Positions 3,661-35,994 of a stretch of 38,777 nucleotides of DNA are shown one piece after another (position 1 is the stretch's first letter; each line of letters starts with the position of its first letter). The stretch is from Peptococcaceae bacterium (lineage in GTDB: Bacteria > Bacillota > Peptococcia > DRI-13 > UBA5745), in assembly GCA_031265035.1 (NCBI GenBank), contig JAISDE010000142.1:1-38777 (forward strand). The letters are read 5' to 3'. The notes under the pieces are model-generated. The model was not told the DNA's origin and made no database searches. It was given only the letters and a program-made list of their open reading frames with translations. The translations under genes were made by a program, and so were the position numbers.

Positions 3661-3701
3661 CCCCGGTTACCCCGGTTAGATTTCCCGTCGATTTCCCGTC
3701 G
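3661..3701. repeat. Two adjacent short tandem duplications
   Basis: (CCCCGGTTA)x2 followed by (GATTTCCCGTC)x2. Confidence 0.85.
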
Positions 3702-3769
3702 GATACGGACTGGAACTCTGTATTGAATTCTGGTATAGTGGGGGTAGTCCAGAATGAAAGGTATACCGC

Positions 3770-4345
3770 ATGAAGTATTATAAAATCTTAATGGCTGACA
3801 AGTCAGAGAATGATATTGTTGGCCACTGCGCTAATGACTATGGAATAGGATATGACGCGCTATGCCAAGGAAAAGAGTTTCTCAACTGGAATGACGCCTT
3901 CATGTTTTATTACAACAAAAATGAAGGCGATATCCCGACTGACTATCTGGCAAATGACAAAGGCTGGTTTCTTATATCTGAGAATTTAAAAGAACTGTTA
4001 GAAGGAATGCGCGTCGCTTGTCAGTATTTTAATATACCAATAATAGAGGCGGTTACCAATACTCCACTTAACCCTTACTATGGGGCTAATATTCTTCAAA
4101 TGGTAGACGCGCTTTGCCTTGACGCGTCAGAATACTCGACAATGACGGTCAAAAAAAGCACCGATGTTTTCCACAATATAAAAAAATTCGCGGTTCACGC
4201 GTCGAAATTGAATGGCATAGACGTTTTTAAGTTAGCAACAGGAAGCGTATTCCCGATTTTTGTATCACAACGATTTAAGGATGAGGTAAGAAAGCGAAAT
4301 TTGACAGGAATGGATTTTCAGGAAATAAGAGTAGTTCCTTATTAG
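3770..4345 (+). CDS. Imm11/DUF1629-like polymorphic-toxin immunity protein
   Basis: DYL..GWFLISENLKELL, NIL..VDALC...SEY and C-terminal IFVSQRFK......LTGMDF patterns recalled for this family; AT-rich. Confidence 0.7.
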   Translation: MKYYKILMADKSENDIVGHCANDYGIGYDALCQGKEFLNWNDAFMFYYNKNEGDIPTDYLANDKGWFLISENLKELLEGMRVACQYFNIPIIEAVTNTPLNPYYGANILQMVDALCLDASEYSTMTVKKSTDVFHNIKKFAVHASKLNGIDVFKLATGSVFPIFVSQRFKDEVRKRNLTGMDFQEIRVVPY

Positions 4346-4364
4346 GCGCTTCCGAGGAGGCAGG

Positions 4365-4889
4365 ATGATGGAAACATCAATTATTCAAGAATTCGCGTTA
4401 TTTATCAACGAAGTCAATAAATATACGGAAGGCGTTCACTTTCTCAATCCTGGCGCGGAATTATCCGTTATTGAAGGATTCGAAAAAAGTAATAATATCA
4501 GTCTTCCGAAGCAATATAAAAATTTTTTGCGATTACATAATGGTGGGGAACTATTCAGACCGGGAGTAGTATTAGCCGCGATCTACAATGGAAAAACAGG
4601 AGATAAAAAAATCGGCGTACCATACCTTGATGAATCGTTGTCGCGTCATAGGCGTTTACCCGGTATGCCGAATAACTTGCTTATCATCGCGGACATGAAT
4701 TATGGAGATCCAATCTGTATAGCGCTCAACCATAGTGACGACGAGTCAAAAGTTGTTCAATGGAGCATTGAGGACGGCAATATATCACGCGAATGGGATA
4801 GCTTTACCGAATGGCTGTCGAATACCATTGAAGAAGGTTCTATGTTAGTAAGCTATGATGGAAGTGAGAAAGAATTAGATTTTCTGTAG
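4365..4889 (+). CDS. SMI1/KNR4 (SUKH) family immunity protein
   Basis: LNPGA....IEGFEK..NISLPKQYKNFLRLHNGG, LIIADMNYGDPIC, WDSFTEWL; GAGGAGG RBS. Confidence 0.9.
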   Translation: MMETSIIQEFALFINEVNKYTEGVHFLNPGAELSVIEGFEKSNNISLPKQYKNFLRLHNGGELFRPGVVLAAIYNGKTGDKKIGVPYLDESLSRHRRLPGMPNNLLIIADMNYGDPICIALNHSDDESKVVQWSIEDGNISREWDSFTEWLSNTIEEGSMLVSYDGSEKELDFL

Positions 4890-4935
4890 CCACTAAATGG
4901 CGCTTTCCCTACGCCTATCCCCGCGCTATCTATCA

Positions 4936-4991
4936 GTTCAGCTTTCCTTTTCCCTCAGCGTCTTTGTGTAATAAAACTTACCCCCACCACC
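4936..4991. repeat. Intergenic 56-bp copy of the 3' end of the 7583-8098 gene
   Basis: 52/56 identical to 7581-7636, same orientation. Confidence 0.9.
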
Positions 4992-5018
4992 TATTCAATA
5001 CCCATTCCTTTCATTATC

Positions 5019-5348
5019 TCACTCCAAGTCCTGAACGCTCATTTTTTCTAAATCTCGTCGCCTTTCGCGTTTCCCGCCGCAAGCCGCGTAGATGGCGAGT
5101 AAAACGGCTGTCGGTATGTTGACAAACAGAAAAGCGGATACCATCGCCGCGATCACTGTTGATACCTCGCCAACGCTCACCACATTAAGCGCGAAAATTA
5201 ACGAGACGCAAAATGAGATAATTGGCAATATAAGACCCGCCCATTTGCTTTCTTTTTTCGAGAGAAATATTTGTAACCATATCCCGCCCGCGCCAAAAAC
5301 CAAAAGAAGAATAAGACTGAGTATGATTGTTCTCGTAGCAATCGCCAC
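5019..5348 (-). CDS. Small membrane protein (about 3 TM helices), partner of the DUF2089 gene
   Basis: Three hydrophobic segments; GTG start overlaps the upstream TAG stop. Confidence 0.8.
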   Translation of the reverse strand: MAIATRTIILSLILLLVFGAGGIWLQIFLSKKESKWAGLILPIISFCVSLIFALNVVSVGEVSTVIAAMVSAFLFVNIPTAVLLAIYAACGGKRERRRDLEKMSVQDLE

Positions 5349-5647
5349 TACGCTCTCACCCCCAACTTTTTATACTCCGCGATCAAGATTTTCGCGGTAT
5401 CGAAATCAACCTTTTCACTGACCGCCAAGCGCTTAATCAAGGCGATATACGGCTCATTGGCGGTATCCTCGCTGATTTGGATTTTCTGTATCAGCTTATC
5501 AAGCCGCAAACGCACCGTTGGATAAGTTACGCCGTATTGCCGCGCCATTTCTTTCAGTGAGCCGGAAGCCCGCAAAAATTTCTTGATAAATGTAACGTCT
5601 TCATCCTCAAAGTTCACCATCCATTCGGGGATAATCTCTAATGACAT
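5348..5647 (-). CDS. DUF2089-family HTH protein (putative regulator)
   Basis: FIKKFLRASGSLKEMARQYGVTYPTVRLRLDKLI signature; GGAGG RBS. Confidence 0.85.
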   Translation of the reverse strand: MSLEIIPEWMVNFEDEDVTFIKKFLRASGSLKEMARQYGVTYPTVRLRLDKLIQKIQISEDTANEPYIALIKRLAVSEKVDFDTAKILIAEYKKLGVRA

Positions 5648-5661
5648 AGCCCCACCCCTCC

Positions 5662-5703
5662 TTTAACAATGTTGATTATAAACCTCAACAATGTTAAAGT
5701 CAA
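5662..5703 (-). promoter_or_regulatory. Sigma-A promoter with an inverted-repeat operator straddling the -10
   Basis: TTGACT (5703-5698), 17 bp, TATAAT (5680-5675); 14-bp inverted repeat with 1 mismatch at 5662-5675 and 5685-5698. Confidence 0.8.
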
Positions 5704-5709
5704 TGCCAA

Positions 5710-5823
5710 AATCAAAAGCGTATTGCGGAACTCGACCGGCTTTTCAAGAAAACCTACGAGGACAATGCCGGCGGAAAATTGAGTGACAAGCGGTTTGAGC
5801 AGCTATCGGCGGACTATGAGCGG
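5710..5823 (+). pseudogene. Internal fragment of a TnpX-like large serine recombinase (coiled-coil/DUF4368 region)
   Basis: Manual translation NQKRIAELDRLFKKTYEDNAGGKLSDKRFEQLSADYER; no start codon or catalytic domain nearby. Confidence 0.75.
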
Positions 5824-5865
5824 TTTTTGAGCGGGTCGAACGGTTCCATAGCGTACCACCTTGTC

Positions 5866-5925
5866 AGCAAGTTTTAAGCAAGATTAAGCAAGATTAAGCA
5901 AGATTAAGCAAGTTTTAAGCAAGTT
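5866..5925. repeat. 10-11 bp tandem repeat (TTAAGCAAGA-like), 5-6 units
   Basis: AGCAAGTTTTA, (AGCAAGATTA)x3, AGCAAGTTTTA, AGCAAGTT; no spacers. Confidence 0.9.
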
Positions 5926-5933
5926 GCTAGTGA

Positions 5934-7556
5934 CTAATTTTGTTCGGTGCCTTCATGCCATTTCGCGGCAGATGTGCTGCCGCTGCTGTGAATCCGTCCC
6001 TCGTCACGCAATTCGCGGAGCAAATACTGGATTTGATTTTTTGAGTGGCTCGGAAGAACTTGCCGCAACTCTTTCAGCGGCGTTCCCTTGTCACCGCTTT
6101 CGCGAATATGTTTCAGCAATAATTCCTTATTTGTTTCGCGGTCTAAGCCAACGATGCGCGTGTGAACCCCCGTCTTACCCGTCGCTTCATAAAGGCTATG
6201 CGCCAAGACATATTTTCCGCGTCCGCTGTGTTCAACGATACCTAAATCGACGAGGCGTTTTATATGCTGACGCAGTTCGTCAGTAAGTTTCCATTCGTGG
6301 AATAATGTGTCGATGACGAGGAAGTCCACAGTCGATAAAACTTCCATTCGCTCATCGCCGATTTGTTTCAGCATTGATAACAGCCGCTTGTCGAGCACAA
6401 GTCCGTTTAAGGTCAGGAACACCCAGTATGCGTCCGTGCCACTGAAATCCGGCAGGGGCTTTGCTTCTTTTACGCTTAATTCGTAAATCAGATTCATTCC
6501 CTGCCCGGAGCGTTCAACCAAACCACATAACGCGAGTATGGACGCGATAAGTCGGTTGCGCGGCGACTGGCGGTTGAGGATATTGTCAACAGTGATGCCG
6601 GATGGAAATCCGCCGGGGCTTTCGACAACGAGCCTGTCCTTGTACTGGCGGACAAACACGCTCCCGCTCATCTGATAATCGCGGTGACTGACGGCATTTA
6701 GCACCGCCTCACGAACCACACGCTCATTGAAAGTCGGCACATCGAAAATGACAAAACCATCTTGATAATGTTGTTTGTCATTCCTCAGGTTCACAAGCTC
6801 CCAAATGCGGTCGAAGAATGAGAAAAATCCTTGCGTAAATTCTTCGCGTTGCGCGGCGGGACCGGACGCGTTTGACGAGCGGTACTCAAATATGACTTCC
6901 GCCTGCGAAAGATGTTTTGTAAGCGCGGCTTTAGTTCCGAATAATATCAGCGCGGCATAGGTTACGCCGTTCGCTTTTATTGCGCCGCAGTCCATTAGCG
7001 ACTGTTCTGCCGACAGCTTTTTTATGCGGTTGTTTCCGCTCTTTTCTGCCCAAAGATCGCGGAATATGGTTATGGCTTTTTCGTCTAAGTCTTTGAGCGA
7101 CGCGCCGAGACAGATGTCGCTTGAAAAATCGTGTCCCGTTTCTTCGTAGATGCCCCGTAAAACTTCCGGCGGCATCGTTACAAGGCTGTCGCCGTCGCGC
7201 CACCAAGCAACGCCGTCAACCTGTACAGGCAGACCTACCGGGCGGCTCGCCACCTCAAAAACGAGGACGGGCATACCGTCCTGCTCGAAAAGCTGAAACT
7301 CAACCTTGATATGGAGCTTATCTATCAGGTTCCTGCAGGCGCGTTCCGGCTGTTCAAAAGCGGTGCTGCCAACGACCTTACGAGGGCGTTTATCGGTAAC
7401 GCCGAGGACGAAGAACCCGCCGCCGCAGTTGGCTAAAGCGCAACAGTATTTCGTCGCTTTTTCAAAGTCGCCGTGGCGTTTCCATTCTTTGAACTCATAC
7501 CGCGACCCCTCGGGTGCGTTGAGCAGGTCAGTTAGGTTATTGGGCGGGTTGGTCAT
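5934..7556 (-). CDS. Schlafen/AlbA_2 domain + RecG-C-like ATP-binding domain + winged-HTH protein
   Basis: EGSRYEFK, ALAN.GGG.FVLGV, VREAVLNAVSHRDY, SPGG, PRNRLIA, VERSGQGM. ATG at 7556 has an AAGGAAGG RBS. Confidence 0.85.
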   Translation of the reverse strand: MTNPPNNLTDLLNAPEGSRYEFKEWKRHGDFEKATKYCCALANCGGGFFVLGVTDKRPRKVVGSTAFEQPERACRNLIDKLHIKVEFQLFEQDGMPVLVFEVASRPVGLPVQVDGVAWWRDGDSLVTMPPEVLRGIYEETGHDFSSDICLGASLKDLDEKAITIFRDLWAEKSGNNRIKKLSAEQSLMDCGAIKANGVTYAALILFGTKAALTKHLSQAEVIFEYRSSNASGPAAQREEFTQGFFSFFDRIWELVNLRNDKQHYQDGFVIFDVPTFNERVVREAVLNAVSHRDYQMSGSVFVRQYKDRLVVESPGGFPSGITVDNILNRQSPRNRLIASILALCGLVERSGQGMNLIYELSVKEAKPLPDFSGTDAYWVFLTLNGLVLDKRLLSMLKQIGDERMEVLSTVDFLVIDTLFHEWKLTDELRQHIKRLVDLGIVEHSGRGKYVLAHSLYEATGKTGVHTRIVGLDRETNKELLLKHIRESGDKGTPLKELRQVLPSHSKNQIQYLLRELRDEGRIHSSGSTSAAKWHEGTEQN

Positions 7557-7582
7557 TGGGCGGCGTCCTTCCTTGTAGGCGT

Positions 7583-8098
7583 TCACTTTTCCTTTTCCCC
7601 CAGCGTCTTTGTGTAATAAAACTTACCCCAACCACCATCTAAAACTACTTCCTCAGCCTTGCCTGTGGTACCTGAGAAATATATGCCGACCCTGCTATTC
7701 CTGTTAGCGATGACGACCCACCAATTGACCTTTAAAACCAAATCCCGGGAAGGCTTGCCCAGCAGCTCAATCGCTTCCTCTTTGGTCGTTTCCGCTGTTA
7801 CCCGGGCTAAAACGGTATCAATATATATTTGTTCCTCCGCTGGGATATCATCGTTTCCCGGGTTTATCGCGCTGCCCAAAAAAACAACGGCGAAAAACAG
7901 CAAGGGCATCCACCCCGCTATTACCGCTATCTTTCTGACGACAGGATTCCTCGCCTTACTATTCTTGAAAAAGTATGGGGAGGTCAATAAAAACATAAAC
8001 AAGCTTATTGCCGCGGGGATGAGTCGCGAGGCAAAAAGATTGTATACCAGTATCATTAAATACAGCAGCGAAAACGCTACAGCAAGCTTTTTCCCCAT
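7583..8098 (-). CDS. Hypothetical membrane protein (3 N-terminal TM helices, small soluble domain)
   Basis: Hydrophobic N-terminal half; ATG at 8098 preceded by GAGGCGG. Confidence 0.7.
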   Translation of the reverse strand: MGKKLAVAFSLLYLMILVYNLFASRLIPAAISLFMFLLTSPYFFKNSKARNPVVRKIAVIAGWMPLLFFAVVFLGSAINPGNDDIPAEEQIYIDTVLARVTAETTKEEAIELLGKPSRDLVLKVNWWVVIANRNSRVGIYFSGTTGKAEEVVLDGGWGKFYYTKTLGEKEK

Positions 8099-8120
8099 GG
8101 CCAACCGCCTCGTATCAATC

Positions 8121-8165
8121 TATTGCCGCGCCATTTCTTTCAGTGGCCGGAAGCCCGCGAAAATT
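8121..8165. repeat. Intergenic 45-bp copy of an internal part of the DUF2089 gene
   Basis: Matches 5535-5580 with one deletion and one mismatch, same orientation. Confidence 0.9.
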
Positions 8166-9174
8166 AAACATTGCCTTTCCAGGCGTTTGGCTCAGCGCCA
8201 TTGTTGAGCGACGCCCAATAGCTCGCTACAGGGTTCGGGTCATTTTTGTCGCGGTATGACAGCAACGTGTCATACCAACCCCGTTGTGACACCCCAAACC
8301 CATTGGCGAGGCCGATATCTGACAGACCATCGGCGCCAAGCTCTATTTTGAACACAGCGTCTTTTATATTGGCCAACCCTATTTTTTGGAGTTCCGTCAG
8401 TCCGTCCTTGATATAAGAAACTGTCGCCGCCGCCTCATTTAGCAGAGTTTGAGACATCAGCGAGCCGCTATATTCGGCGGATACCTTCTCGCCGATGACC
8501 TCAAATACATCGCGGCGGTCAGGTGTGAGAATAGCGTCGTCCTCAAACCGCAAATCAGCCAGTGAAAGCCCAGTCCATTGTCTGAGCGCGCTGTCTATTT
8601 GATATTTTTTCAACTGGTTTTTTGTGACTTGAACAGGGACATCGTTTGTTGAGTTTTTGATATGGGCGAACATCAGCCGACCAAGGCTGGTAGTATTCCA
8701 AGCTTTGGCCATCCCGTCGTTGGGGTCGACTCGCGCGGCATTGAGCGCGTTAGCTATCTGTTCCGCTTTCCCGGCATTTTCCCCTGAAACGTTGAACCTG
8801 TAGCTTGAGTCAACCGAAATCTCGAAATTCTCCCCAGCGACAATCTCAATCCCGTTTTCCCGCAACGCGCCGGCCACCGCGTCATTCATATAGTCGCGCT
8901 GCTGGATACGCCTTTGGGCAAGTTCTATTTGGATCATACGAATATTGCCGTTTTCGTCGCGGAGATACTGCTGCTCTCGCGGCAGGCTTGATTGAACTCT
9001 GGCGTTTACACTCAGGACAACCTCGTCCCTTATCACTGGCGCGCGCGCGGCAGGGCCAAGATCATTCACTTTTACGCGCCCGGTACGCGCCCCCGCCCGC
9101 TTTTGTGGCAACATAGAGTCAAGAAGCGCTTTTCTCTGCTGAAAAAGATAATCATTCATGTTGCTGATGTTCAT
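8164..9174 (-). CDS. Hypothetical protein, possibly DUF4885-like
   Basis: 336-aa ORF with GAGGTGG RBS; LRENGIEI....FEISVD..YRFNVSG resembles DUF4885 from memory. Confidence 0.6.
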   Translation of the reverse strand: MNISNMNDYLFQQRKALLDSMLPQKRAGARTGRVKVNDLGPAARAPVIRDEVVLSVNARVQSSLPREQQYLRDENGNIRMIQIELAQRRIQQRDYMNDAVAGALRENGIEIVAGENFEISVDSSYRFNVSGENAGKAEQIANALNAARVDPNDGMAKAWNTTSLGRLMFAHIKNSTNDVPVQVTKNQLKKYQIDSALRQWTGLSLADLRFEDDAILTPDRRDVFEVIGEKVSAEYSGSLMSQTLLNEAAATVSYIKDGLTELQKIGLANIKDAVFKIELGADGLSDIGLANGFGVSQRGWYDTLLSYRDKNDPNPVASYWASLNNGAEPNAWKGNV

Positions 9175-9266
9175 AACTCAACCCCACCTCGCCATCTATG
9201 GGAGTAAGCCAAATGCCAAAACTCTCCTGCCGGGTCGGCCCGGGCCGGCATACCCCTACTGTATTA

Positions 9267-9293
9267 TTATCGAACGAAACGAGGAAAACTTAA
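9267..9293 (-). promoter_or_regulatory. Sigma-28 (FliA/SigD)-like promoter
   Basis: TTAAGTTT-N11-TTCGATAA versus consensus TAAAGTTT-N11-GCCGATAA. Confidence 0.5.
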
Positions 9294-9431
9294 CCGTTCC
9301 CCGCCCCTTTTTTGCAGGCTGTTCAAAGGTGTCCGCGAACTGGATAGCAGTCAATAGCCTATATTTATCGCGATATGCCCGTTTGCTATAATGTAACAAG
9401 GATGTCTTCGATCTGCGAGAGGAGTTGAGAA

Positions 9432-9539
9432 AGGTAAATCAAACTCCGTTATCACCCCGCTCTTGGTTACTCGCCCAATCTTATTCCCTTGATTCTCGCT
9501 AAACCAAAGAGCGTTATAATTGCCAAAAACAATAAGACA
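9432..9539 (-). pseudogene. Single-blade fragment of a virginiamycin B lyase (Vgb)-like beta-propeller gene
   Basis: Manual translation CLIVFGNYNALWFSENQGNKIGRVTKSGVITEFDLP matches the Vgb repeat pattern G.LWF.E...NKIGRIT..G.I.E..LP. Confidence 0.7.
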
Positions 9540-9822
9540 TCTTATTACAACAGGGCAGAATTATGCAAGCAGTATTGCGTATCTATGCTATTTGCTGTAT
9601 AATAGAATGCAAGAAAAAGGAGTTGATTATGTTGGCAAATAAAACATTGGCGGACAAAGCGATTACCGTCCGAGTGGACGGCGCGACAAAGGAACAGGCT
9701 GAAAAAATGCTGGACGAGATGGGCATTAACATGACAACGTAAATCCCCTGAAATAATTATAAGTGTACCATCAGCCAAATGCGTAAAGCGCTTGAAATAA
9801 AGGAATTTCGCGTATTTGATAC

Positions 9823-9876
9823 TTGACAAACTATAGCCTATACACGTATAATATGGATATATTATACGTGTATAGG
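9823..9876 (+). promoter_or_regulatory. Transposase promoter overlapped by a perfect 18-bp-arm palindrome
   Basis: TTGACA (9823-9828), 18 bp, TATAAT (9847-9852); arms at 9837-9854 and 9859-9876. Confidence 0.8.
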
Positions 9877-9886
9877 GCGGTTTGAG

Positions 9887-11665
9887 ATGCATATTATTGA
9901 GAACTACAACGCTAAAGCGGACAGAGTATATTGCTACGTCGGCGAATGCCAATGGGACAGGCTGGTCAAAAAATATATCAACACCAGGATCTCAATCGGG
10001 CACCTTGATGGCACGCCAACCTATTTCGTGCCAAACAGAAGATTTATGGCGCTCTTTTCCATGGAAGCGAGGGGCCAAGAGATACTTGAAAGATTAGACA
10101 GGGACATCCTTGATGTCATAAGGACGAAATATGGGAGCAGCATCCAATTAGCCGACCGCGACGCCGGCGAAGAGCAGACGCGGGTCGCGCGCGCGGTTTT
10201 CTCGGGGCCGTCAATCGTATTCGGCGGCATCACGTCGCGCTACCACATAGACGCGATGCTCAAACGAGCTTTTGGAGAGAGCGACGCGATGGAAATACTG
10301 GCGCTGGCGTGGTATCTGGTGTCCGAGGGGGACGCGCTCGTCAACAGCGACGTGTGGCTGAGTCATTTTGAGAACCCAGCCGGCGGGGAGATCAGCAGCC
10401 AGAATATAACAAAACTTTTGGATCGCGTTGGGCAGGACGGAATCATGTCGTTTTACAAGCAATGGCTGGAGGGGTTCGGAAAGACCGGCGACAAGACGCT
10501 CTACGACCTGACCTCAATATCCTGGTATGGTCGTGGCATCGACATGGCCGATTGGGGGCACAATCGAGACGGCGAGAATTTGCCCCAGGTTAATTTCGCG
10601 CTGCTTTGCGCGCGGAAGTCGGCGATGCCGCTTTTCGCCTGGCCGCTGAACGGCAGCGTGTCTGACGTGAGAACACTGGAGAACACTCTGGGATTCTTGC
10701 GCAAGCTCGACTGCAAACCGGACTGCCTTATGATGGATCGCGGCTTCGCGAGCATGGACAACATCTCCTTCATGCTGAAGAATGGCTATGTGTTCTTGCA
10801 AGCCGCGCGGCTGAACGCCGGATGGGTCCGCGACGCCATAGACGCGGGGAGGGGGATCAGGCTTCGCCCCGACTCCATGCTGAGGGTCGGGAACAGGACA
10901 TACTACGCCAGCACTACAAAATGCCAGTGGGTCGCGCTGAGAAAAACGGACAAGAAAGGGAATGTTTCCGAACCGGAGGTATTGGTGTATCAATGCGGAA
11001 CCGCTAAGGGGGAAAGATATATGGCTAAGGAAGGCGAGAAGATCATCAGCCAGCACCCATGTGTGGCGCATGTTCTTTTCTGCCAAGATCTCGTTGGCCC
11101 GCAGTGGGACTTGTTCATGGGGAAACTGAACGATGAGTATCGGCGGCTCATCAGCGATCCCAGCGCGGCGCCTGCCAACGAGCTAAAGACATACTTTATT
11201 ATTGAGAGGAAGAAATGGGCCAGGGTGCGGAGCGTGGATTTCAATATGGAACGGATCGAGCGGCACCGAGATAAATACGCCGGGCATATTTGCTTCATCA
11301 CAAACGATAAAACCATCAGTCTGGCTGCTGACGCTCTCGGAGAGTACTCAACACGGGACTATATTGAGAAAGACTTTGACGAGATGAAAAACGACCTGGA
11401 CATGCGCAGGATTCGGGTACACACCGATGAGAGGATGAAAGCGCGCCTGCTTATCCAGTTCATCGCCGAAATTTATATGAGGGAGATCAGGGTGCGCCTG
11501 CGGGACTCAGTTGAGTGCAGAAAGATGACAAGGAAGCAGATCGCCTCCCATATCAAGGGCATATACAAGATAAAGTTTACTGGAAAGTATAGGGACATCT
11601 GCCCTGAACTCTCAAAGTCACAACGGGCGATATTGGCGGCTTTGGGGCTGAACGATTCAAGATAA
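9887..11665 (+). CDS. DDE transposase, IS1634/IS4-like
   Basis: YDLTSIS, GHNRDG.NLPQVN, MDRGF, Y..RDYIEKDF..MKN motifs. Confidence 0.9.
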   Translation: MHIIENYNAKADRVYCYVGECQWDRLVKKYINTRISIGHLDGTPTYFVPNRRFMALFSMEARGQEILERLDRDILDVIRTKYGSSIQLADRDAGEEQTRVARAVFSGPSIVFGGITSRYHIDAMLKRAFGESDAMEILALAWYLVSEGDALVNSDVWLSHFENPAGGEISSQNITKLLDRVGQDGIMSFYKQWLEGFGKTGDKTLYDLTSISWYGRGIDMADWGHNRDGENLPQVNFALLCARKSAMPLFAWPLNGSVSDVRTLENTLGFLRKLDCKPDCLMMDRGFASMDNISFMLKNGYVFLQAARLNAGWVRDAIDAGRGIRLRPDSMLRVGNRTYYASTTKCQWVALRKTDKKGNVSEPEVLVYQCGTAKGERYMAKEGEKIISQHPCVAHVLFCQDLVGPQWDLFMGKLNDEYRRLISDPSAAPANELKTYFIIERKKWARVRSVDFNMERIERHRDKYAGHICFITNDKTISLAADALGEYSTRDYIEKDFDEMKNDLDMRRIRVHTDERMKARLLIQFIAEIYMREIRVRLRDSVECRKMTRKQIASHIKGIYKIKFTGKYRDICPELSKSQRAILAALGLNDSR

Positions 11666-11893
11666 TACACGTATAATTCTCTGGGGGATTTACGATGACA
11701 ACCTACATCGCGTCAAGCCTTAAAGCCTTAGTCCGCGAGCGAAGAATCCCCTTTGATATGGTCACGCGAGAGTATCTAGCGGATCAAATCATTCTGGCAA
11801 AACTGGCCGAAGCCGAAAGAGAGATTGCCGACCCAAACACTGTGTTATTAGACCATGACGAAATTTTTGGCCCAATCAGGAAGCAATTCGGTT

Positions 11894-12022
11894 ATGAAGT
11901 ATAGGGTTCGGCATACGCCGCTATCCAACCGAGAAGTAGCCGCCATAGCCAAAGCCCTCGCGCGATATCCTAAAAAACTTATTCCGCGCGACGCCATTGA
12001 TTTTTTCCCTTCATTAACTTAA
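11894..12022 (+). pseudogene. Truncated RelE/ParE-like toxin (N-terminus only)
   Basis: ATG overlaps the antitoxin end; MKYRVRHTPLSNREVAAIAKAL resembles a ParE/RelE N-terminus; stops after 42 codons. Confidence 0.6.
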
Positions 12023-12023
12023 A

Positions 12024-13379
12024 ATGGTAATGACGGGAGGGATCAATATAATTATCTTAAAACGCGGCCTGACTTATCTCTTGCTCCTGCTGTTTTGCAA
12101 CATCGTCCTCGTAGCGGGCGCCCTGCCCGGAGCCGCGGCCATATTGGCCGCTGTCGCGCTGGCCGTCTTTTATATTCGCTTCAACGTGATCCCCCGGGGG
12201 GACAAATCCCCCCAGCGCCGGCTCAGGATCCTGATCGGCGGCTATGAGTTGGCCCTGGCCGCTATCACCTGCTTTACTTTTGAGATTTTAGCTTACCTCT
12301 ATATCATCCTAGGCCCAACAAATATCGCGATACCCGCCCTCACCGTTAACGCCCTGATAAGCGCCGGCCTGATCTTTATTCTGCTCTTCAACGGCATAGC
12401 CCGCATATTTGTCTGCTCCGGCCAGTTGGGGATTATGCCCAGAGTACTTTTGGCGCTTTTCTGGTGGCTGCCGGTGGTGAACCTTCTCCTGCTCAGGCAA
12501 TTTCTCAGCGCGTCCAGCGGCGAATATGAGTTCACGCTTCAAAAGCGTCAACTCAACGCGGCGCGGCGGCAGGATGAGCTGTGCAAGACCCGTTACCCGC
12601 TCTTGCTGGTACACGGGATATTTTTTCGGGACTGGGAGAATTTCAATTACTGGGGCCGAATAGCTAGGGAATTGACGGACAACGGCGCCGCGATATATTA
12701 CGGCAAACATCAGTCCTCCGCCTCGGTGGAGCGATGCGCGGGCGAACTCAAACAATGCGTCTTGGATATCCTGCGGGAGACCGGCCAGGAAAAGGTCAAT
12801 ATCATAGCGCACTCCAAGGGCGGCCTCGACTCGCGGTACGCGATCAGCTGTCTCGGCCTGGGCGAGCGGGTAGCGTCCCTCACGACTATCAATACGCCGC
12901 ACCTGGGCTGCGAATATGTGCGCAAGCTATTGGACGCCATCCCGGCCAAGGCGGTATCGGCCATAGGTAAAGGGTATGAGTCAATCTATACCAAACTGGG
13001 CGACGACAACCCTGATTTTCTCAATGGGCTGAAGAACCTCACCGATCAGGAATGCGCCCGGCTGAACGGCGTCATGCCAGACCACCCCGCCGTTTTATAC
13101 CAAAGCGTCGGCTCGCGGATGCGGTCGGCCGCCAGCGCCGTCTTCCCGCTGAGTTTGGGCTATTCCATTATCAAGCTCTCCGGCGGCGGCGACAACGACG
13201 GTCTCGTCACCACGGCGTCAATGGTATGGGGCGATTTTCTCGGCGTCGTCAGCCCCAAAGGCCGGGATGGTATTTCCCACGGCGACATCATCGACCTGAC
13301 CCGCAAGAATATCAAGGGTTTCGACGTTTGCGAGTTTTATGTCGATCTGGTAAACAAGCTAAAGTTAAAGGGGCTGTGA
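12024..13379 (+). CDS. Membrane-anchored alpha/beta-hydrolase (lipase/esterase)
   Basis: About 5 N-terminal TM helices; LVHG, AHSKGG nucleophile elbow, TPHLG, NDGLV, SHGD. Start codon uncertain. Confidence 0.88.
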   Translation: MVMTGGINIIILKRGLTYLLLLLFCNIVLVAGALPGAAAILAAVALAVFYIRFNVIPRGDKSPQRRLRILIGGYELALAAITCFTFEILAYLYIILGPTNIAIPALTVNALISAGLIFILLFNGIARIFVCSGQLGIMPRVLLALFWWLPVVNLLLLRQFLSASSGEYEFTLQKRQLNAARRQDELCKTRYPLLLVHGIFFRDWENFNYWGRIARELTDNGAAIYYGKHQSSASVERCAGELKQCVLDILRETGQEKVNIIAHSKGGLDSRYAISCLGLGERVASLTTINTPHLGCEYVRKLLDAIPAKAVSAIGKGYESIYTKLGDDNPDFLNGLKNLTDQECARLNGVMPDHPAVLYQSVGSRMRSAASAVFPLSLGYSIIKLSGGGDNDGLVTTASMVWGDFLGVVSPKGRDGISHGDIIDLTRKNIKGFDVCEFYVDLVNKLKLKGL

Positions 13380-13558
13380 TACCAGCATGTCAGCCTGGGC
13401 AATTAAGGTGGGCAATTAAACTTGCGATTTGCAAGGCCCTGTCAGCCTGTCAGATTTTCATGGAACTCGCTTAAAAAATATGATATACTACCTGTGACTT
13501 GTGAAAATCCCAAAGAAAAATCTGATCGCCCGTATAACTAGCGGCGCAGGGGGAAAAC

Positions 13559-15628
13559 ATGCGCAATCCGGCTCATCAGGATCAACAAGCTACCGCTCCG
13601 CCCGACCGTCACCCGCCAGCTGGCGCCCAGCCGGCCCTTGACTATCCCTCGTCGGCCAGCGCCCAACCGGCGCCGGGCCAGGGACTGGCGGAGTTGATCG
13701 CCCATCTGCCCGGTATGCTCTATCAATGCCTGAACGAGCCGCCGGATTACCCTTTTACTTTCGTCAGCGACGGCTGTCTGAGCCTGACCGGCTGCCGGCC
13801 GGCGGAGCTACTGGGACAACCCTTCGCCAAATTTCTCGCCCTGGCCCATCCCGAGGACGCCCCGACGCTAAACGCCTTATATGAAAAGGCCGTCGCCGGC
13901 GGGTCGCCTTGGGAGATCACTTTTCGCCTGAGCCATCCGGACGGCGGCGTCAGATGGGTCTGGGCCAAAAGCTGGACGGCGGCTGGCGCGCCCGCCGCCG
14001 CCCCCAACCTGTCGGCGGACACTCCCACCGGCGCCCCCAATCTGTCGGCTGGCGCGCCCGCTCCCCATATACTGGAGGGCTTTTGCGCCGATATCACCGG
14101 GCAGCGCCATTTGGAGGCGGCGGAACTGGCCAACCAAGCCAAAACAGAGTTTCTGGTCAACATGAGCCATGAGATCCGCACCCCCATGAACGCCATTTTG
14201 GGCATGACCGATCTGGCCCTCCGACAAACCCCGCCCGAGCCGACGGGGGAATATTTGCGCAATATTCGGACAGCCTCCAATTCCCTGCTGGCTATCATCA
14301 ATGACATTTTGGATTTCTCCAAAATCGAGGCCGGCGCGATTGAGATCATGCCGGAACGATACGATACTCAGCCCTTTATTCACGACCTGGCGACCATGAT
14401 CGACATGCGAATTGGCAAAAAGCCCCTAGAATTTATCATAGAGGACGACCCGGATTTGCCCAGTGAGATGATCGGCGACGTGAGCAGGATCAAGCAAATC
14501 GCCATCAATCTGCTGACCAACGCCGTAAAATTCACCAAGACCGGCCATGTTCGCCTGCGGATCAACGCGGATAACACGCCGGACCCGGAAAAGGTTCAGC
14601 TAAACGTCGAGGTGGAGGATACCGGCATCGGCATCAAAAAAGAGGATATCGATCGCCTTTTCGGTTATTTCTCCCAGGTGGACACGAAAAGAAACCGCAA
14701 TATCGAGGGCACGGGCCTGGGCTTGGCCATCTCCAAACGGCTGGTCAACCTGATGGGCGGGGAAATCAAGGTGGAGAGCGTTTACCGCAAAGGCTCCTGT
14801 TTTCGGTTTTCTGTGCTTCAGGGCGTGGCCGACCGGACGCCGGCGGTACGGATCGCCCCGGCGACGGGCTGCCGGGCGGCGATCTGGCTGGACAACCGGG
14901 CCAAGGCCAAAAGCCTGGCCGACAAGCTAGAACGCCTGGGCGCGAGAGCGGAGATCATCTATTATCCGGAAAAACTCGCCCAGTACACCCATTTATTTTT
15001 TGATTATTACCGTTTTGACCGTTTCACGCCGGAAGAAGGGATCGAAACCAAGCTGATCGCCCTGAGCGGCAATTTCATGGACGAGCAGGATTTGCCTGGC
15101 GATGTGATCACCGTCCGCTCCCCTTTGTATTCCGCGGCGGTGGCGGAATTGTTGGACGCGGGCTACCACCGGCCAGTCGACCATGAGGCGGAAAACGAGG
15201 AACCCACCGATTTGATCCTCAGCGATACCCGCTTGCTGGTAGTGGACGACAATGAGATCAATTTGCTGGTGGCGGAAAATATGCTGGCGGCCTACGGCGG
15301 GGAAGTGGAGAAGGTTCGCTCCGGCCAGGAGGCGCTGGACATGGTTTATTCCGGCGATTACGACCTGGTGTTTATGGATCATATGATGCCGGATATGGAC
15401 GGGGTGGAGACGACGGCGCTGATCCGGCAGTTGCCGGGAGACAGGTTCAAGAACTTGCCCATCGTGGCGCTGACGGCCAATGTGGTGGGCGATGTCAGGG
15501 AAATGTTTCTCCGCAGCGGCCTGAATGATTTCCTGTCCAAGCCCATTCGCCTGCGGGAGGTAGAGCGGGTGTTGCGGCAATGGCTGCCCCGGGATAAGTG
15601 GTCACAAAGCGGCTTCGACGGCAGATAA
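13559..15628 (+). CDS. Cytoplasmic hybrid sensor histidine kinase (PAS-HisKA-HATPase-REC)
   Basis: HPED PAS motif, [36 protein letters not shown]...FMDHMMP.MDG...KP. Confidence 0.93.
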
Positions 15629-15670
15629 ATTACCGCGGACAAATTTAGCGACGGAGGAACAAGCGACAAG

Positions 15671-16432
15671 ATGAAGGCGATTGTGCTCGCCGCGGGATAC
15701 GCCACCAGGCTCTACCCGCTAACCGAAAAACAGCCCAAGGCGCTGCTGCCCATCGGCGGCAAAGCGATTTTGGGTTACATCATGGAAAAATTGGACGTCT
15801 TGCCTGAGTGCGAGGAAATCCTGATCATCTCCAACCACAAATACATCCGGCATTTTACCGAGTGGCTGGGCCAATGGGCCGGCCGATTGCCGGTCGCCCT
15901 GCTAGACGACGGCAGCGAGGATGTGACCGACAGCCTGGGCGCTATCGGCGACATCGTCCACACCATTCGGGCCAGGGGCATCGACGAGGATGTCCTGATC
16001 GTGGCGGGCGACAATTTTTTTGACTTTCCCCTGGACGGCTTCCTGCTGGCCTGCCGGGAAAAAGGGCGGGACGGCGTTTGCGCCGGCAGGGTAACGGACA
16101 AAAACCGGCTGCGGCAAATGGGCGTGGTCTCGCTGGATCAGCGAGGCGATATCCTCCACATCGAGGAAAAGCCGGCGCTGCCCCGCTCAGATTTGGCTCT
16201 GTACGCTATTTATTATTATACCCGAGCAACACTCAGGCTCTTTGACTTGTATGCCCGGGAGGGTAATGTCATGGACGCGCCGGGCCATTTTCTGGTCTGG
16301 CTGCGCCGACAAAAACCGATTCTCGCTTATTTGTTCGAGGGTGAGTGCCATGATGTGGGCACACCCGAAAGTTATGGCGCCTTGCGGGAGAGATTTGACC
16401 GGTCGGCGACGGAAAATGAGGTGAAATCATGA
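15671..16432 (+). CDS. Sugar-phosphate nucleotidyltransferase
   Basis: LAAGYATRLYPLT..PKALL, AGDN, EEKP, DVGT. Confidence 0.9.
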   Translation: MKAIVLAAGYATRLYPLTEKQPKALLPIGGKAILGYIMEKLDVLPECEEILIISNHKYIRHFTEWLGQWAGRLPVALLDDGSEDVTDSLGAIGDIVHTIRARGIDEDVLIVAGDNFFDFPLDGFLLACREKGRDGVCAGRVTDKNRLRQMGVVSLDQRGDILHIEEKPALPRSDLALYAIYYYTRATLRLFDLYAREGNVMDAPGHFLVWLRRQKPILAYLFEGECHDVGTPESYGALRERFDRSATENEVKS

Positions 16433-17640
16433 AGATAGCGCTGTTTACCGATACGTTCTATCCGCAGCTCAACGGCGTGGCCGCCTCTGTGTTGACGCTG
16501 CAAAATAATTTAGCCGCCCTGGGCCACCAGGTCTACGTGGTCACTACCACGGATCCCGAGGCGCCGCCGGGGGAAACGACGGTCGTCCGGCTGCCCAGCC
16601 TGCCTGTCCCCCACCTGCGGGAAAGGCGCATCGGCATGTTTTATCATCCCCGGCTGGCCCGGCTGATCAGGAGTTGGGAGTTGGATCTGATCCATACCCA
16701 CACGGAGTTTTGCCTGGGCAGCTTTGGGCGCTATCTGGCCCGGGATCTGCAAATTCCCCTGTTGCACAGCATGCACACGATCTATGAGGATTATACCCAT
16801 TACTTAGCGAAACTCGCCAAGCTGCGAATGTTGAGCGGCCTGGCGAAAGCGGCGGCCAGAAAGATCAGCGCCGATTTCTGCAATTCCGCCGATCACGTCA
16901 TCGTGCCCACCGACAAGGTGCGGGATTTGATGCGGTCTTATGGGGTCTGGCGGGAAATCGCCACTGTGCCCAGCGGTATATTGGTGGAGAAATTCGCCGG
17001 CGGCCAGGAGGATCCATCTGACCGGGAGGCCCTGCGGGCCGACCTGGGGATCAAAGCCGGCGAACGGGTTTTGCTCTACATCGGCCGGCTGGCGGAAGAA
17101 AAAAATCTGACGGAATTGCTGCGGGATCTGGCGACGTATCTGACCGCCCAGGATAATATCCGGCTGCTGCTCATCGGCGACGGCCCGGACAGGGGCCGGC
17201 TGGAAGACCTGGCGGCGTCTTTGGGCATCGGATCCCGGGCGATTTTCGCCGGGGCCAGGCCCTGGGATGAGATCGAGCGGTATTATCGTCTGGGTGATGT
17301 GTTTGTCAATACCTCCCAGAGCGAGAGCCAGGGCCTCACCTATATAGAGGCGATGGCCGCCGGGCTGCCGGTGGTGGCGAAAGCGGATCGCTGCCTGGAC
17401 GGCGTTTTGGAGGACGGCAAAAACGGCTACGCTTTCCAGGATCAGGCCGGCATGCTGACAGCCTTGGATCTAATCCTGGGGGATGATGCGGCGAGAGAGC
17501 TTTTGGCCCAGCGCGCCCGCCAAACCGCGAGGCGTTTCTCCGCCGCCGGCTACGGGGAGCGGGTGGCCGAGCTGTATCAGGCTGTGTTGGCCGCCGGCAA
17601 GGGTTATCAAGCCGCCAAGAGATATCAAAAAGTTTCCTGA
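16429..17640 (+). CDS. GT4 glycosyltransferase, probable diacylglycerol glycosyltransferase
   Basis: FTDTFYPQLNGV, HTHTEF, HTIYEDYTHY, GRLAEEKN, SESQGLTYIEAMA; ATGA overlap with the upstream gene. Confidence 0.9.
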   Translation: MKIALFTDTFYPQLNGVAASVLTLQNNLAALGHQVYVVTTTDPEAPPGETTVVRLPSLPVPHLRERRIGMFYHPRLARLIRSWELDLIHTHTEFCLGSFGRYLARDLQIPLLHSMHTIYEDYTHYLAKLAKLRMLSGLAKAAARKISADFCNSADHVIVPTDKVRDLMRSYGVWREIATVPSGILVEKFAGGQEDPSDREALRADLGIKAGERVLLYIGRLAEEKNLTELLRDLATYLTAQDNIRLLLIGDGPDRGRLEDLAASLGIGSRAIFAGARPWDEIERYYRLGDVFVNTSQSESQGLTYIEAMAAGLPVVAKADRCLDGVLEDGKNGYAFQDQAGMLTALDLILGDDAARELLAQRARQTARRFSAAGYGERVAELYQAVLAAGKGYQAAKRYQKVS

Positions 17641-17728
17641 GCGCCGACGCTCAGAGCACGCGCTCAGAGCGAGCGTCTGGCTCGGCGCTCTCAACACCGG
17701 CGCTCAACGCCGGCTCTCAGAGCGAGCG
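17639..17728. repeat. Repetitive spacer containing copies of the fumarase-beta 3' end
   Basis: CTCAGAGCGAGCG at 17663-17675 and 17716-17728, partial copy at 17650-17657. Confidence 0.75.
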
Positions 17729-18271
17729 CAGATAATCCGCCCGCCCAAGCCGGTAGAGATCGGCGCCCTGAGCGTCGATCACCACGGTGGCGGGAAAGTC
17801 CCTCACCGTCAGCCGTTGAACGGCCTCCGTCCCCAAATCCTCATAGCAAACCGGCTCCGCCGCGACGACACTGCCAGCGATCAGCGCCGCGCCGCCGCCC
17901 AAGGCGCCGAAATACACGGCGCCATATTTTTTCATGCTGTCAATCACCTGGGGGGAGCGCATCCCTTTGCCGATCATGCCCCGCAGCCCCGCCTCAATCA
18001 GCCTGGGGGCGTAAGCGTCCATGCGATAGCTGGTGGTGGGGCCGGCGGCGCCGATCACCCGCCCCGGCCGGGCGGGGCTTGGTCCAACGTAATAAATCAC
18101 GCTGTCCTGTAAATCAAAGGGGAAAGCCTCGCCTTTTTCCAGAACATCCGTCAGGCGGGCGTGAGCCGCGTCCCTGGCGGTATAAATGACGCCGTTGAGC
18201 AAGACCCTGTCCCCGGCCCGCAACTCAAGGGCGGCCTTTTTGGTCAGCGGCGCGCGCAGCCGAATATCCAT
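17717..18271 (-). CDS. Class I fumarate hydratase/tartrate dehydratase beta subunit
   Basis: TARDAAH, GPTTSYRMD, IGKG, DLGTEAV, DFP. Confidence 0.93.
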   Translation of the reverse strand: MDIRLRAPLTKKAALELRAGDRVLLNGVIYTARDAAHARLTDVLEKGEAFPFDLQDSVIYYVGPSPARPGRVIGAAGPTTSYRMDAYAPRLIEAGLRGMIGKGMRSPQVIDSMKKYGAVYFGALGGGAALIAGSVVAAEPVCYEDLGTEAVQRLTVRDFPATVVIDAQGADLYRLGRADYLRSL

Positions 18272-18285
18272 ACCTCATTCTCCTT

Positions 18286-19128
18286 CTACAGAACTACACT
18301 AACCCGGCGGGTCGCGTGGCAGCTGATGTTGACCGCCACCGGCAGCCCGGCGATATGGGTGGGCAGCGTCTCAATGCTGACGCCCAAGGCCGTGGTTTGC
18401 CCGCCAAAGCCCTGGGGCCCGATGCCCAGGCGATTGATTTTTTCCCACAGCTCTAGCTCCATCTCCCGGTAATAGGGATCGGGATGGGGCTCGTCCAGGC
18501 CCCGCAGCAGGGCCTTTTTGGCCAGCAGCGCCACCTGATCAAAGGAGCCGCCGATCCCCACGCCCACGACGATGGGCGGGCAGGGATTGGGACCGGCCAA
18601 GCTGACAGTCTCCACCACAAAATCCTTGACGCCGGCCGCCCCGGCGGCGGGGGTCAGCATCGCCAGGCGGCTCATATTTTCCGAGCCAAAGCCTTTGGGG
18701 GACAAGGTGATGGTCAGCCTGTCCCCCGGCACAATATCCGTATGGATCAGCGCCGGCGTATTGTCGCCGGTATTTTTACGCCGCAGGGGATCCGCCACCA
18801 CCGAGCGGCGCAGATAGCCCTGGGCGTAGCCCTGCCTTATCCCCTCGTGTACCGCCTCGTAAAGATCGCCCCCCACAATACGCGCGTCCTGGCCCAAAGC
18901 CAAAAAAACGCAAGCCATGCCAGTATCCTGGCACAACGGTATGGCCTCCCGCCGGGCGATGTCCATATTTTGGCACAACTTATCCAGAGTATCCCTGGCC
19001 GCCGGCCACGGCTCCCGCTCCCGGCACTCCCTGATCCGGCCCGCTATATCCTCGGGCAAAACCATATTGGCGCCGGCGCACATTTGACAAACGCTGGCCG
19101 TGACAGCGCCGCTGCTGATTTCCCGCAA
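18286..19128 (-). CDS. Class I fumarate hydratase/tartrate dehydratase alpha subunit
   Basis: CQDTG, YLRRSVV, NTGDN, KGFGSEN, NPCPP, GIGPQGFGG, THIA, CHATR. Confidence 0.93.
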   Translation of the reverse strand: MREISSGAVTASVCQMCAGANMVLPEDIAGRIRECREREPWPAARDTLDKLCQNMDIARREAIPLCQDTGMACVFLALGQDARIVGGDLYEAVHEGIRQGYAQGYLRRSVVADPLRRKNTGDNTPALIHTDIVPGDRLTITLSPKGFGSENMSRLAMLTPAAGAAGVKDFVVETVSLAGPNPCPPIVVGVGIGGSFDQVALLAKKALLRGLDEPHPDPYYREMELELWEKINRLGIGPQGFGGQTTALGVSIETLPTHIAGLPVAVNISCHATRRVSVVL

Positions 19129-19188
19129 AACCCGCTCCCCCTCTCTCGTTTATTACCCCTTAATTACCACATCAATTACCACTCAAAA

Positions 19189-19692
19189 TTACCACTCAAA
19201 CACCGACCCGTATGAGATATAAATGGATTTCAAAACGGATTTGCTCATCGCCGGTACCCGAAACTCTCTCACCCCGCAATTTAACGCCAGATAATTGAAT
19301 TCCGTCACAGTCACGGCAGTGTCGGAATCCCTCCTCAACCCAAACATGGGGAGAATGTCACTCATATATTTGTAGGGAAACTCCTCTAAGATAATTATCC
19401 GCTGAAGCGAGTCCTGATAATACTGATATAGATAAAGGACACCTTCATAACTCAGAGTTCGAATTGGGTATTTGCCGCCATTTTCCCCGCTGAAATCCCA
19501 TTCCACAATTTCCTGAGGCTCGCCAATTTTCGCTATCAATTCTTGCTCGGATAAAGTCTCGCCCGCCGCGTTTAAGAAATCTAAGGCGTCAAAGACCACC
19601 TCTACTTCCCTTTTCTCCAAGTACGTCGCCGCGTATACCCCGCAGGCGGACAGAATAGCCAGCCACAACAGAAAAATTTTGACAGGCCTCAT
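19189..19692 (-). CDS. Hypothetical exported protein
   Basis: AT-richer ORF; probable start MRPVKIFLLWLAILSAC looks like a signal peptide or lipobox. Confidence 0.6.
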   Translation of the reverse strand: MRPVKIFLLWLAILSACGVYAATYLEKREVEVVFDALDFLNAAGETLSEQELIAKIGEPQEIVEWDFSGENGGKYPIRTLSYEGVLYLYQYYQDSLQRIIILEEFPYKYMSDILPMFGLRRDSDTAVTVTEFNYLALNCGVREFRVPAMSKSVLKSIYISYGSVFEW

Positions 19693-19794
19693 TTCTCGCC
19701 AGCCCCTTTTTAATGAATCCATTAACATTTCAGCTAACATTTCAGCGTTTCAGCGTTTCGAGTCAATACTAGCACATTAGTGATGCCGTGTCTA

Positions 19795-19831
19795 CGCCCG
19801 CCAAACCGCGAGGCGTTTCTCCGCCGCCGGC
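19795..19831. repeat. Exact 37-bp intergenic copy of glycosyltransferase coding sequence
   Basis: CGCCCGCCAAACCGCGAGGCGTTTCTCCGCCGCCGGC is identical to 17514-17550. Confidence 0.95.
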
Positions 19832-19854: not shown

Positions 19855-19946
19855 ATGATTATGATTTCTTGTGATTTCTTATGATTTCTTTATGATTATG
19901 ATTTATCTATGATTTATCTATGATTTACGCGCTGATTTATGCGCTG
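19855..19946. repeat. Degenerate ATGATTT(C/A)-type tandem repeat
   Basis: About 10 TGATT-cored units spaced 6-12 bp apart, upstream of the V-ATPase promoter. Confidence 0.85.
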
Positions 19947-20005
19947 TGGACAAAAGTGGATTTGTTTTTCGTATGAATAGGCAAATCATTCTTCCCCTCG
20001 TTCCC

Positions 20006-35950: not shown

Positions 35951-35994
35951 GAGTTGACAAAATTCACTACCGGCCCGGAGCCGCCGCAAACGCG

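Follow-up and report, generated by a model that had tools for sequence, protein, structure and literature searches.

Short intergenic copies of nearby genes in a Peptococcaceae contig are best read as scraps of local duplication and deletion

How do short pieces of genes come to lie in intergenic DNA, in the same orientation as the genes they match and only two or three kilobases away from them? The question is raised by a 38,777-nucleotide contig (JAISDE010000142.1, positions 1 to 38,777, called the window below) in the draft genome of a Peptococcaceae bacterium (GCA_031265035.1), where three such pieces, which we call relics 1, 2 and 3, match parts (donors 1, 2 and 3) of the gene for the membrane protein p173, of a DUF2089 helix-turn-helix (HTH) gene and of a GT4 glycosyltransferase (GT) gene, respectively. 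The initial annotation of this DNA counted three independent cases and suspected a possibly undescribed process that writes nearby DNA into spacers, with templated insertion during repair, template switching, or collapse of kb-scale tandem duplications as candidates. The last of these is the reading that we favour, on the grounds of the collinearity and common register of two of the pairs: on balance, the short copies are probably pseudogene scraps left after deletions in locally duplicated segments, and not patches written into spacers. Pseudogene scraps that arise by duplication and deletion are already known.

The three co-oriented copies named in that annotation were all found, and all three pairs are direct repeats (coordinates of all features are collected in Table 1). 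In a self-comparison of the window, pair 1 (4936–4991 against 7581–7636) is identical at 52/56 positions with a spacing of 2645 bp, and gapped alignment extends it to 63 identical columns of 74 (85%; BLAST E = 4e-17). The members of pair 2 are identical at 44/46 positions of a gapped alignment with one 1-base gap, around a core that is a 25-base exact run, and are spaced by 2586 bp, while pair 3 matches at 37/37 positions with a spacing of 2281 bp. When the pieces were compared with the whole assembly (2,572,273 bases in 247 contigs, the window being contig C72), each matched itself and one partner only; the sole exception was a 23-nt GC-rich match of the relic-3 query on contig C132, which is at chance level (E = 7e-4). 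The BLAST E-values for the repeats in a self-comparison of the genome are 3e-10 to 4e-15, and the three repeats exceed chance by far. A dispersed repeat element of the repetitive extragenic palindrome or miniature inverted-repeat transposable element kind was ruled out, since there are exactly two copies of each sequence in 2.57 Mb.

The relics are non-coding, as had been reported. Translation of relic 1 gives a p173-like tail with an in-frame stop upstream of its conserved part, relic 2 is frameshifted by a 1-base deletion after which its reading ends in a stop, and relic 3 lies in a divergent promoter spacer of 363 bp, where it is followed by 8 unrelated codons and then a stop. One correction to the earlier description is that relics 1 and 2 nearly fill short spacers and abut gene ends: only 10 bp separate the p109 stop from the start of relic 1, and relic 2 occupies 45 of the 59 bases between the p336 stop (8164–8166) and the p173 start.

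The arrangement of pairs 1 and 2 carries most of the argument. Read along the minus strand, the order is p336, relic 2, p173, p550, a 286-bp spacer, DUF2089, p109 and relic 1, so that one locus has a DUF2089 scrap with an intact p173 gene and the other has an intact DUF2089–p109 pair with a C-terminal scrap of p173. The two pairs are collinear, with offsets of 2645 and 2586 bp and with scrap-to-scrap interiors of 543 and 484 bp, and retention is complementary: DUF2089 and p173 are each intact once and present as a disabled scrap in the other copy. If the second copy had been placed independently, anywhere within ±5 kb and in either orientation, the chance of its lying within 59 bp of the same offset would be about 119/20,000 or 0.6%, and it would be about 3% if only direct offsets of 0.4–4 kb were allowed. 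Collinearity and the common register mark pairs 1 and 2 as a single event, which makes two events in all and not three independent cases. The donors had also been described as unrelated, and they are unrelated genes in pairs 1 and 2, but the two pairs belong to a single collinear register.

The scraps come from copies of the genes of this same genome, or else from alleles very close to these. Relic 1 retains the lineage-specific tail of this particular p173 (KFYYTKTL.EKE), seven homologues of which end in variants of ..FY[YF]...L.., and relic 2 is 44/46 identical to the DUF2089 gene of its own genome versus 82–92% identity to the genes of seven other genomes; the lineage-specific tail and the closer DUF2089 identity both point to this origin.

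These features could be accounted for as follows. A module of about 3 kb, consisting of p550, the DUF2089–p109 cassette and p173, would once have been present in two co-oriented copies about 2.6 kb out of register, the second copy having most likely originated by tandem duplication. Deletions would then have taken DUF2089–p109 from the upstream copy, where the 45-bp DUF2089 scrap remained, and the greater part of p173 from the downstream one, where the 74-bp C-terminal scrap remained, with the outcome that each gene would survive once and the gene order would be altered, which is the duplication-random-loss route. The most economical version would be one duplication of the unit p550-spacer-DUF2089-p109-p173 plus three deletions, which together would give the exact present order: two deletions would have struck the first copy, one taking p550 along with the 5' part of DUF2089 and the other taking the DUF2089 3' part along with p109, and a third would have removed the 5' three-quarters of p173 in the second copy. 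A variant unit, spacer-DUF2089-p109-p173-p550, would need four deletions. The boundary between the p173 stop and p550 (7580/7581) can be the duplication joint, since the N-terminus of p550 is not conserved before residue 13–17 in its paralogues; in those on contigs C127 and C64 the alignment does not begin until residue 13 or 17. A good ribosome-binding motif lies ahead of the p550 ATG at 7556, which is probably the real start of the gene. The core of donor 1 (7581–7636) comprises the last 17 codons and the stop of the 173-aa p173. The duplication, the succession of events and the points where the deletions ended are all inferred. At 5874–5913, between the p550 stop and the DUF2089 promoter, the 10-base unit TTAAGCAAGA is repeated in tandem, with four units.

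A tandem duplicate that is half eroded is present elsewhere in the same genome, and like the repeats, their collinearity and register, the complementary retention and the disabled state of the relics it is observed directly. On contig C114 (940–4511, locus L104) a defence-type gene pair encoding an AAA_21 ATPase (1553–2713) and RloB (940–1569) has a co-oriented second copy 2324 bp away at 91–93% identity. This second copy has lost 465 bp internally, so that the offset shifts to 1849 bp, and it has lost its ends as well; RloB is reduced to a fragment of 113 aa and the ATPase to one of 98 aa, and a p550 paralogue (AlbA_2/HATPase_c_4) lies next to them. The C114 duplicate, which matches the window in scale and in type of island, shows an intermediate stage of the process proposed here.

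The genome-wide self-comparison that the initial annotation had called for was run with gene calls from a crude codon-usage open-reading-frame filter that covered 81% of the bases. There were 119 same-contig pairs of high-scoring segments, 117 direct and 2 inverted. Nineteen of these segments, on 13 contigs, have at least 85% identity and a spacing of at least 400 bp, and their offsets range from 0.6 to 13 kb but are mostly 0.9–3.9 kb, so a distance of 2.3–2.6 kb is not special. Short repeat pairs (25–100 bp, at least 90% identity) numbered 305, of which 28 have both members on one contig: 6 join one coding sequence (CDS) to another, 15 are spacer-to-spacer, 4 are mixed and 3 are CDS-to-spacer, the last being the window's own three pairs and no others. 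The annotation's idea of a recurring local process thus found no further cases among the same-contig short pairs, and rarity of such matches was what that annotation had itself taken to speak against the idea. Across contigs there are 26 de-duplicated CDS-to-spacer pairs; a looser count gives 29, of which about 10 are from multi-copy repeat families and 4 are at contig ends.

The other short direct repeats with kb-scale spacing were set aside as a different kind of feature, being promoter-like sequences on contig C216 and hairpin or terminator-like sequences on C5 and C109. On C216, three promoter-like copies of about 50 bp with a TATAAT box (1819–1870, 2969–3020 and 4196–4245) lie 1150 and 1227 bp apart, each preceding a gene start. 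A dispersed repeat family of about 55–70 bp has about 16–20 copies, several of them near the starts of long open reading frames (for example C88:16124–16247, C189:3150–3203 and C112:2626–2685). On C202 (689–2829, locus L105), fragments of a PD-(D/E)XK_2 gene (a weak Pfam match) flank a ParE/Phd toxin–antitoxin pair, with fragment offsets that vary from 1007 to 2071 bp. Within the window, five overlapping 27-nt copies at 35895–35957 are made up of a 9-base tandem repeat (GCTGGCGTC-like units).

Comparable histories are on record. In the parts of PMC5745709 and PMC4223735 on which we draw, tandem duplication followed by random loss is the standard model of gene-order change in animal mitochondrial genomes, with pseudogene scraps that persist in spacers, and the complementary retention, collinear scraps and altered order described here match it; the setting differs in being a bacterial chromosome and a horizontally acquired accessory island, with no outgroup that has the ancestral order. 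Among the literature matches listed, which concern organelle genomes and tRNA tools, there is no bacterial-chromosome case of duplication-random loss, and this does not imply novelty for bacteria. Bacterial spacers are also described, in the relevant parts of PMC3164680 (on Buchnera spacers) and PMC2817411, as holding decaying gene fragments, with a deletional bias that removes redundant DNA. Those non-functional fragments at various stages of erosion resemble our relics, but as far as those parts go they represent single-copy losses during genome reduction, whereas here an intact sister lies 2.3–2.6 kb away. Finally, bioRxiv 10.64898/2026.05.22.727201 treats bacterial tandem duplications and how they are classified; the portion used here characterises them as direct, kb-scale and unstable, as arising whether or not homology flanks them, and as being resolved through recombination or through deletion. 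The AAA_21/RloB duplicate on C114 is a live example in this genome; the window differs in that only end-stage scraps are seen and the duplication behind them is a reconstruction.

Several observations weigh against this explanation. Neither an outgroup nor an intermediate was found for the locus of pairs 1 and 2: DNA of 4800–8300 matched none of 40 related genomes, the only matches being to p550 paralogues of the same genome, which is the only member of its genus among the genomes compared. In 80 of 80 DUF2089 loci from other genomes neither p173 nor p336 lies nearby, so that the postulated DUF2089-p109-p173 adjacency is not a general arrangement, and p173 itself is found in 0/87 other genomes of the class, with its family profile in 0/400 sampled genomes of the phylum and in 0/5 genomes that have the closest DUF2089–p109 cassettes. 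The metagenome contig collection likewise gave no match to the p173 protein and none to an exact word of 29 bases taken from the end of p173; we therefore have to postulate that its adjacency to the cassette is specific to this lineage. Duplication and loss would further need 4–5 events for pairs 1 and 2. The relics have sharp edges, and the homology beside them is at the level of shuffled controls in all five flank comparisons, which fits inserted small patches equally well. Lastly, the two events are somewhat clustered, since a single 15-kb stretch contains both and the 2.57 Mb show no further CDS-to-spacer copy on the contig of its donor; this clustering must be read with the fact that the window was chosen because of them. 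The p173 family itself is small and uncharacterised: besides the window's own fragment there are seven homologues at 48–75% identity, none with a Pfam family, known only from metagenome-derived proteins (P0001, P0003–P0008), and invariant NWWV and LDGG.G.FY motifs are seen in the C-terminal domain.

Pair 3 would be a separate, younger event of the same general kind, and we are less certain of it. Donor 3 lies 90 bp before the GT stop, and the block that the pair encloses (17717–19740, minus strand) holds the genes for fumarase beta, fumarase alpha and p183. A nucleotidyltransferase–GT gene pair is kept in 4/4 sister-genus genomes, with the fumarase genes and the V-ATPase operon on other contigs, so the neighbourhood of pair 3 is rearranged in this lineage; these relatives are only about 60% identical in the GT protein, and their contigs allow no junction-level comparison. 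Orthologues align to GT residue 403 in 3/4 loci, which indicates that the present GT C-terminus is ancestral and that relic 3 is not a displaced gene end. The pair could have arisen through a duplication that began at 17514 and was collapsed by a deletion that ran beyond its end, leaving 37 bp. One insertion of a 37-bp patch would be equally economical, which is a further point against our explanation, and we give a slight edge to the collapsed duplication because that mechanism is documented elsewhere in the genome and patch machinery was not found. About ten short repeats containing TGATTT (ATGATTT variants) are densely clustered just after relic 3, at 19855–19950, and may be a regulator-binding array, and repeated CTCAGAGCGAGCG-type pieces occur at 17637–17741, in the spacer that separates the stops of the convergent GT and fumarase beta genes.

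Table 1. Positions of the repeat pairs and neighbouring features in the window.
Feature	Position	Strand	Basis
Convergent SUKH-1 and Imm11 immunity-type genes	3770–4889		Pfam
Relic 1, p173-type 3'-end scrap, non-coding	4936–5009	−	52/56; 63/74 when extended
DUF2089–p109 two-gene cassette with its own promoter	5019–5704	−	DNA match ends at cassette edges
p109	5348–5019	−	Downstream of DUF2089
DUF2089 HTH gene, 99 aa, intact	5348–5647	−	Pfam
Donor 2, internal part (codons ~23–37) of the DUF2089 HTH gene	5535–5580	−	Alignment, Pfam
p550, Schlafen AlbA_2 + HATPase_c_4 protein	5934–7586	−	Pfam
Donor 1, last ~23 codons of p173, stop and 2 further bases	7581–7653	−	Alignment
p173, membrane protein with conserved C-terminal domain, intact copy	7583–8104	−	No Pfam family
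Relic 2, frameshifted DUF2089 scrap	8121–8165	−	44/46 with 1-base deletion
p336, DUF4885 protein, upstream neighbour of relic 2	8164–9174	−	Pfam
IS4-type DDE transposase gene, 592 aa	9887–11665		Pfam
Donor 3, within the 3' part of the GT4 glycosyltransferase gene (16429–17640)	17514–17550	+	Pfam, repeat match
Fumarate hydratase beta	17717–18271	−	Pfam
Fumarate hydratase alpha	18286–19128	−	Pfam
p183	19189–19740	−	Enclosed by pair 3
Relic 3, 37 bp, exact, in the spacer that separates p183 from the divergent V-ATPase operon	19795–19831	+	37/37

An origin of the relics in DNA that came from outside has to be considered, since the surroundings of pairs 1 and 2 are evidently imported. GC content across 4–10 kb is 0.41–0.51 versus 0.58 for the genome. 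A p109 homologue lies directly downstream of DUF2089 in 78/80 loci from other genomes, and the best DNA match of the cassette (86.5% over 682 bp) is to locus L005 of a termite-gut Gracilibacteraceae metagenome-assembled genome (MAG). It covers exactly 5023–5704, that is both genes and their strong promoter-like site (TTGACT-17-TATAAT at 5703–5675, 11/12 positions), and stops at both cassette ends. DUF2089 is present in 0/33 other genomes of the organism's own order. Judged by these comparisons the DUF2089–p109 cassette is horizontally acquired, and the low-GC, mosaic island around it, with its Imm11 and SUKH immunity genes and its IS4-type transposase, is by the same evidence horizontally acquired too. 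The adjacent Imm11 and SUKH-1 (SMI1/KNR4) genes have no toxin gene beside them and look like orphan immunity genes of a polymorphic-toxin system. The IS4-type transposase gene has a word depth of ~30–35 versus ~7 in its flanks in contigs of the Logan collection (below); either it exists in several copies or other organisms in the sample have it too.

The relics might accordingly be remnants of separately acquired copies, or of crossover duplications with incoming DNA, left by successive horizontal insertions, for example by Campbell-type integration of a circle through 40–70 bp of homology or by replacement of an older DUF2089-p109(-p173) cassette, so that the scraps would be attL/attR-like or displaced remnants. 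We consider this unlikely, though it has points in its favour beyond the imported cassette and the low GC: recombination of 7581–7636 with 4936–4991 would excise p550-DUF2089-p109 cleanly with p173 intact, as at an integration site, and the block in pair 3 adjoins neither of its neighbours in 4/4 relatives. Pairs 1 and 3 also resemble the attL/attR sites of integrative elements in being direct repeats that bracket 2.3–2.6 kb and leave a gene intact. They differ from such sites in that neither bracketed segment has a recombinase gene, in that relic 3 is an internal 37-bp piece of its gene and no displaced gene end, the GT C-terminus being ancestral, and in that the enclosed fumarase genes are core genes, present in 4/4 relatives. 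Relic 2, moreover, is an internal gene fragment, which would need a further event, and its register with pair 1 would go unexplained. The initial annotation had seen no integrase, and Pfam finds none in the p550/DUF2089/p109 segment or in the fumarase alpha/beta/p183 segment; but outside these segments lies the IS4-type transposase gene. Elsewhere in the genome, a 203-bp direct repeat with 99% identity on contig C19 (1–203 and 3902–4104, spacing 3901 bp; locus L106), one copy of which overlaps the 3' end of a tyrosine recombinase gene (3111–4034), may be the att-type repeat of an integrated element.

Short-patch templated copying, in which 37–74 bp were copied from 2–3 kb away in the same orientation on two or three separate occasions during repair, replication restart or template switching, seems to us rather improbable, marginally more so than acquisition from outside. 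It would account directly for relics that are all isolated and sharp-edged with flanks at the shuffled-control level, that are all co-oriented with a donor 2.3–2.6 kb away, and that include one exact, and thus young, copy (relic 3) for which a single patch is as economical as a duplication with a deletion. It would, however, make a coincidence (about 0.6–3%, above) of the near-equal offsets and the collinearity of pairs 1 and 2, and copying would have run one way along the chromosome for one patch and the opposite way for the other. No microhomology was found at the six junctions, where the bases adjoining all copies differ, and no other same-contig CDS-to-spacer copy exists in the genome. The repair and reverse-transcription genes that the initial annotation had wished to see checked gave no match to Ku (PF02735) or to the reverse transcriptase family RVT_1 (PF00078), in a genome that is 85% complete, so that absence of either is not proven; MutS_V has 2 matches and RecA has 1. 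A limited search found no literature on short templated patches in bacterial spacers, which does not establish that none is in print. More doubtful still is the idea that this termite-gut bacterium, Ku-less and reverse transcriptase-less, has a local process of short-patch copying that preserves orientation and of which the three patches are the footprints; the sharp edges, the exact 37-mer and the want of an outgroup keep it under consideration.

A function for the repeats, whether as programmed sites of excision or amplification, in regulatory RNA pairing or as the template and variable repeats of a diversity-generating retroelement (DGR), is very improbable. Pair 1 is outwardly like a DGR in consisting of a gene 3' end with a nearby, co-oriented, non-coding copy, but the DGR reading was rejected: no reverse transcriptase was found, only 1 of the 4 substitutions in the 56-bp core and 3 of the 10 in the 74-bp alignment are at adenines of the non-coding copy, and pair 2 is an internal fragment. 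Relic 3 is exact and abuts the −35 box of a promoter-like site for p183 (TAGACA-17-TAGTAT, minus strand 19794–19766). This candidate promoter starts at 19794, which places relic 3 upstream of the p183 transcript and outside it, and an antisense-RNA reading of relic 3 was rejected on this ground, the candidate promoter being downstream of the relic. Relics 1 and 2 have the same sense as their donors, which makes antisense pairing impossible for them, and Rfam has no match anywhere in the window.

Least credible of all is that mixed strains or mis-joins in the graph made the repeats an artefact of metagenome assembly. In favour of it, the draft genome consists of 247 contigs, Logan word depth is ~6–12 outside conserved or multi-copy bins and one 3,009-bp contig has identical 119-base ends. 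Against it, the repeats, at 37–74 bp, are shorter than those 119 bases (probably the final assembly word size, and contig names of sister MAGs bear a 'k119' prefix), relics 1 and 2 are bridged in an independent k = 31 assembly that also has both left contexts of the 37-mer, and exchange of the right contexts of pair 3 would cut off the conserved GT C-terminus. The independent assembly is that of public run X1, a termite gut metagenome that holds 87% of the sampled words of 4800–14700 and is probably the source sample, so its contigs are not independent DNA; almost nothing of the window is present in runs X2 and X3. Logan k = 31 contigs of X1 cover 4700–5416 and 7640–8437 with 0 differences, by which relics 1 and 2 are bridged. 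Others stop at 17543 and 19824, 30 bases into each 37-mer copy as expected for a k = 31 graph, and the contig 18147–19824 spans the left junction of relic 3; these ends inside both copies indicate that both left contexts of pair 3 exist, and the Logan matches listed do not include the right junction of relic 3. No deletion joint at the repeats was among the 15 joints listed (of 31 in the Logan contigs), a result that is uninformative on excision since contigs drop rare variants. The contig whose first 119 bases recur as its last 119 is C90; it probably represents a small element, either circular or repeated in tandem, that was closed at the probable assembly word size.

Local duplication and deletion is an ordinary route of bacterial genome change, and the relics are best read as its products, with no need of a new copying mechanism. 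Short CDS copies in spacers need not mean a new mechanism, and before events are counted one should ask whether the copies are collinear and share a register. RecA could act on the surviving direct repeats of 37–74 bp to bring about deletion or re-amplification: recombination between both copies of the p173 end would excise p550-DUF2089-p109 and leave p173 whole, and recombination between the two GT copies would remove the fumarase genes and truncate the glycosyltransferase. If duplication and loss did shape this locus, the window keeps both footprints of such a reshuffle of gene order in a bacterial accessory island.

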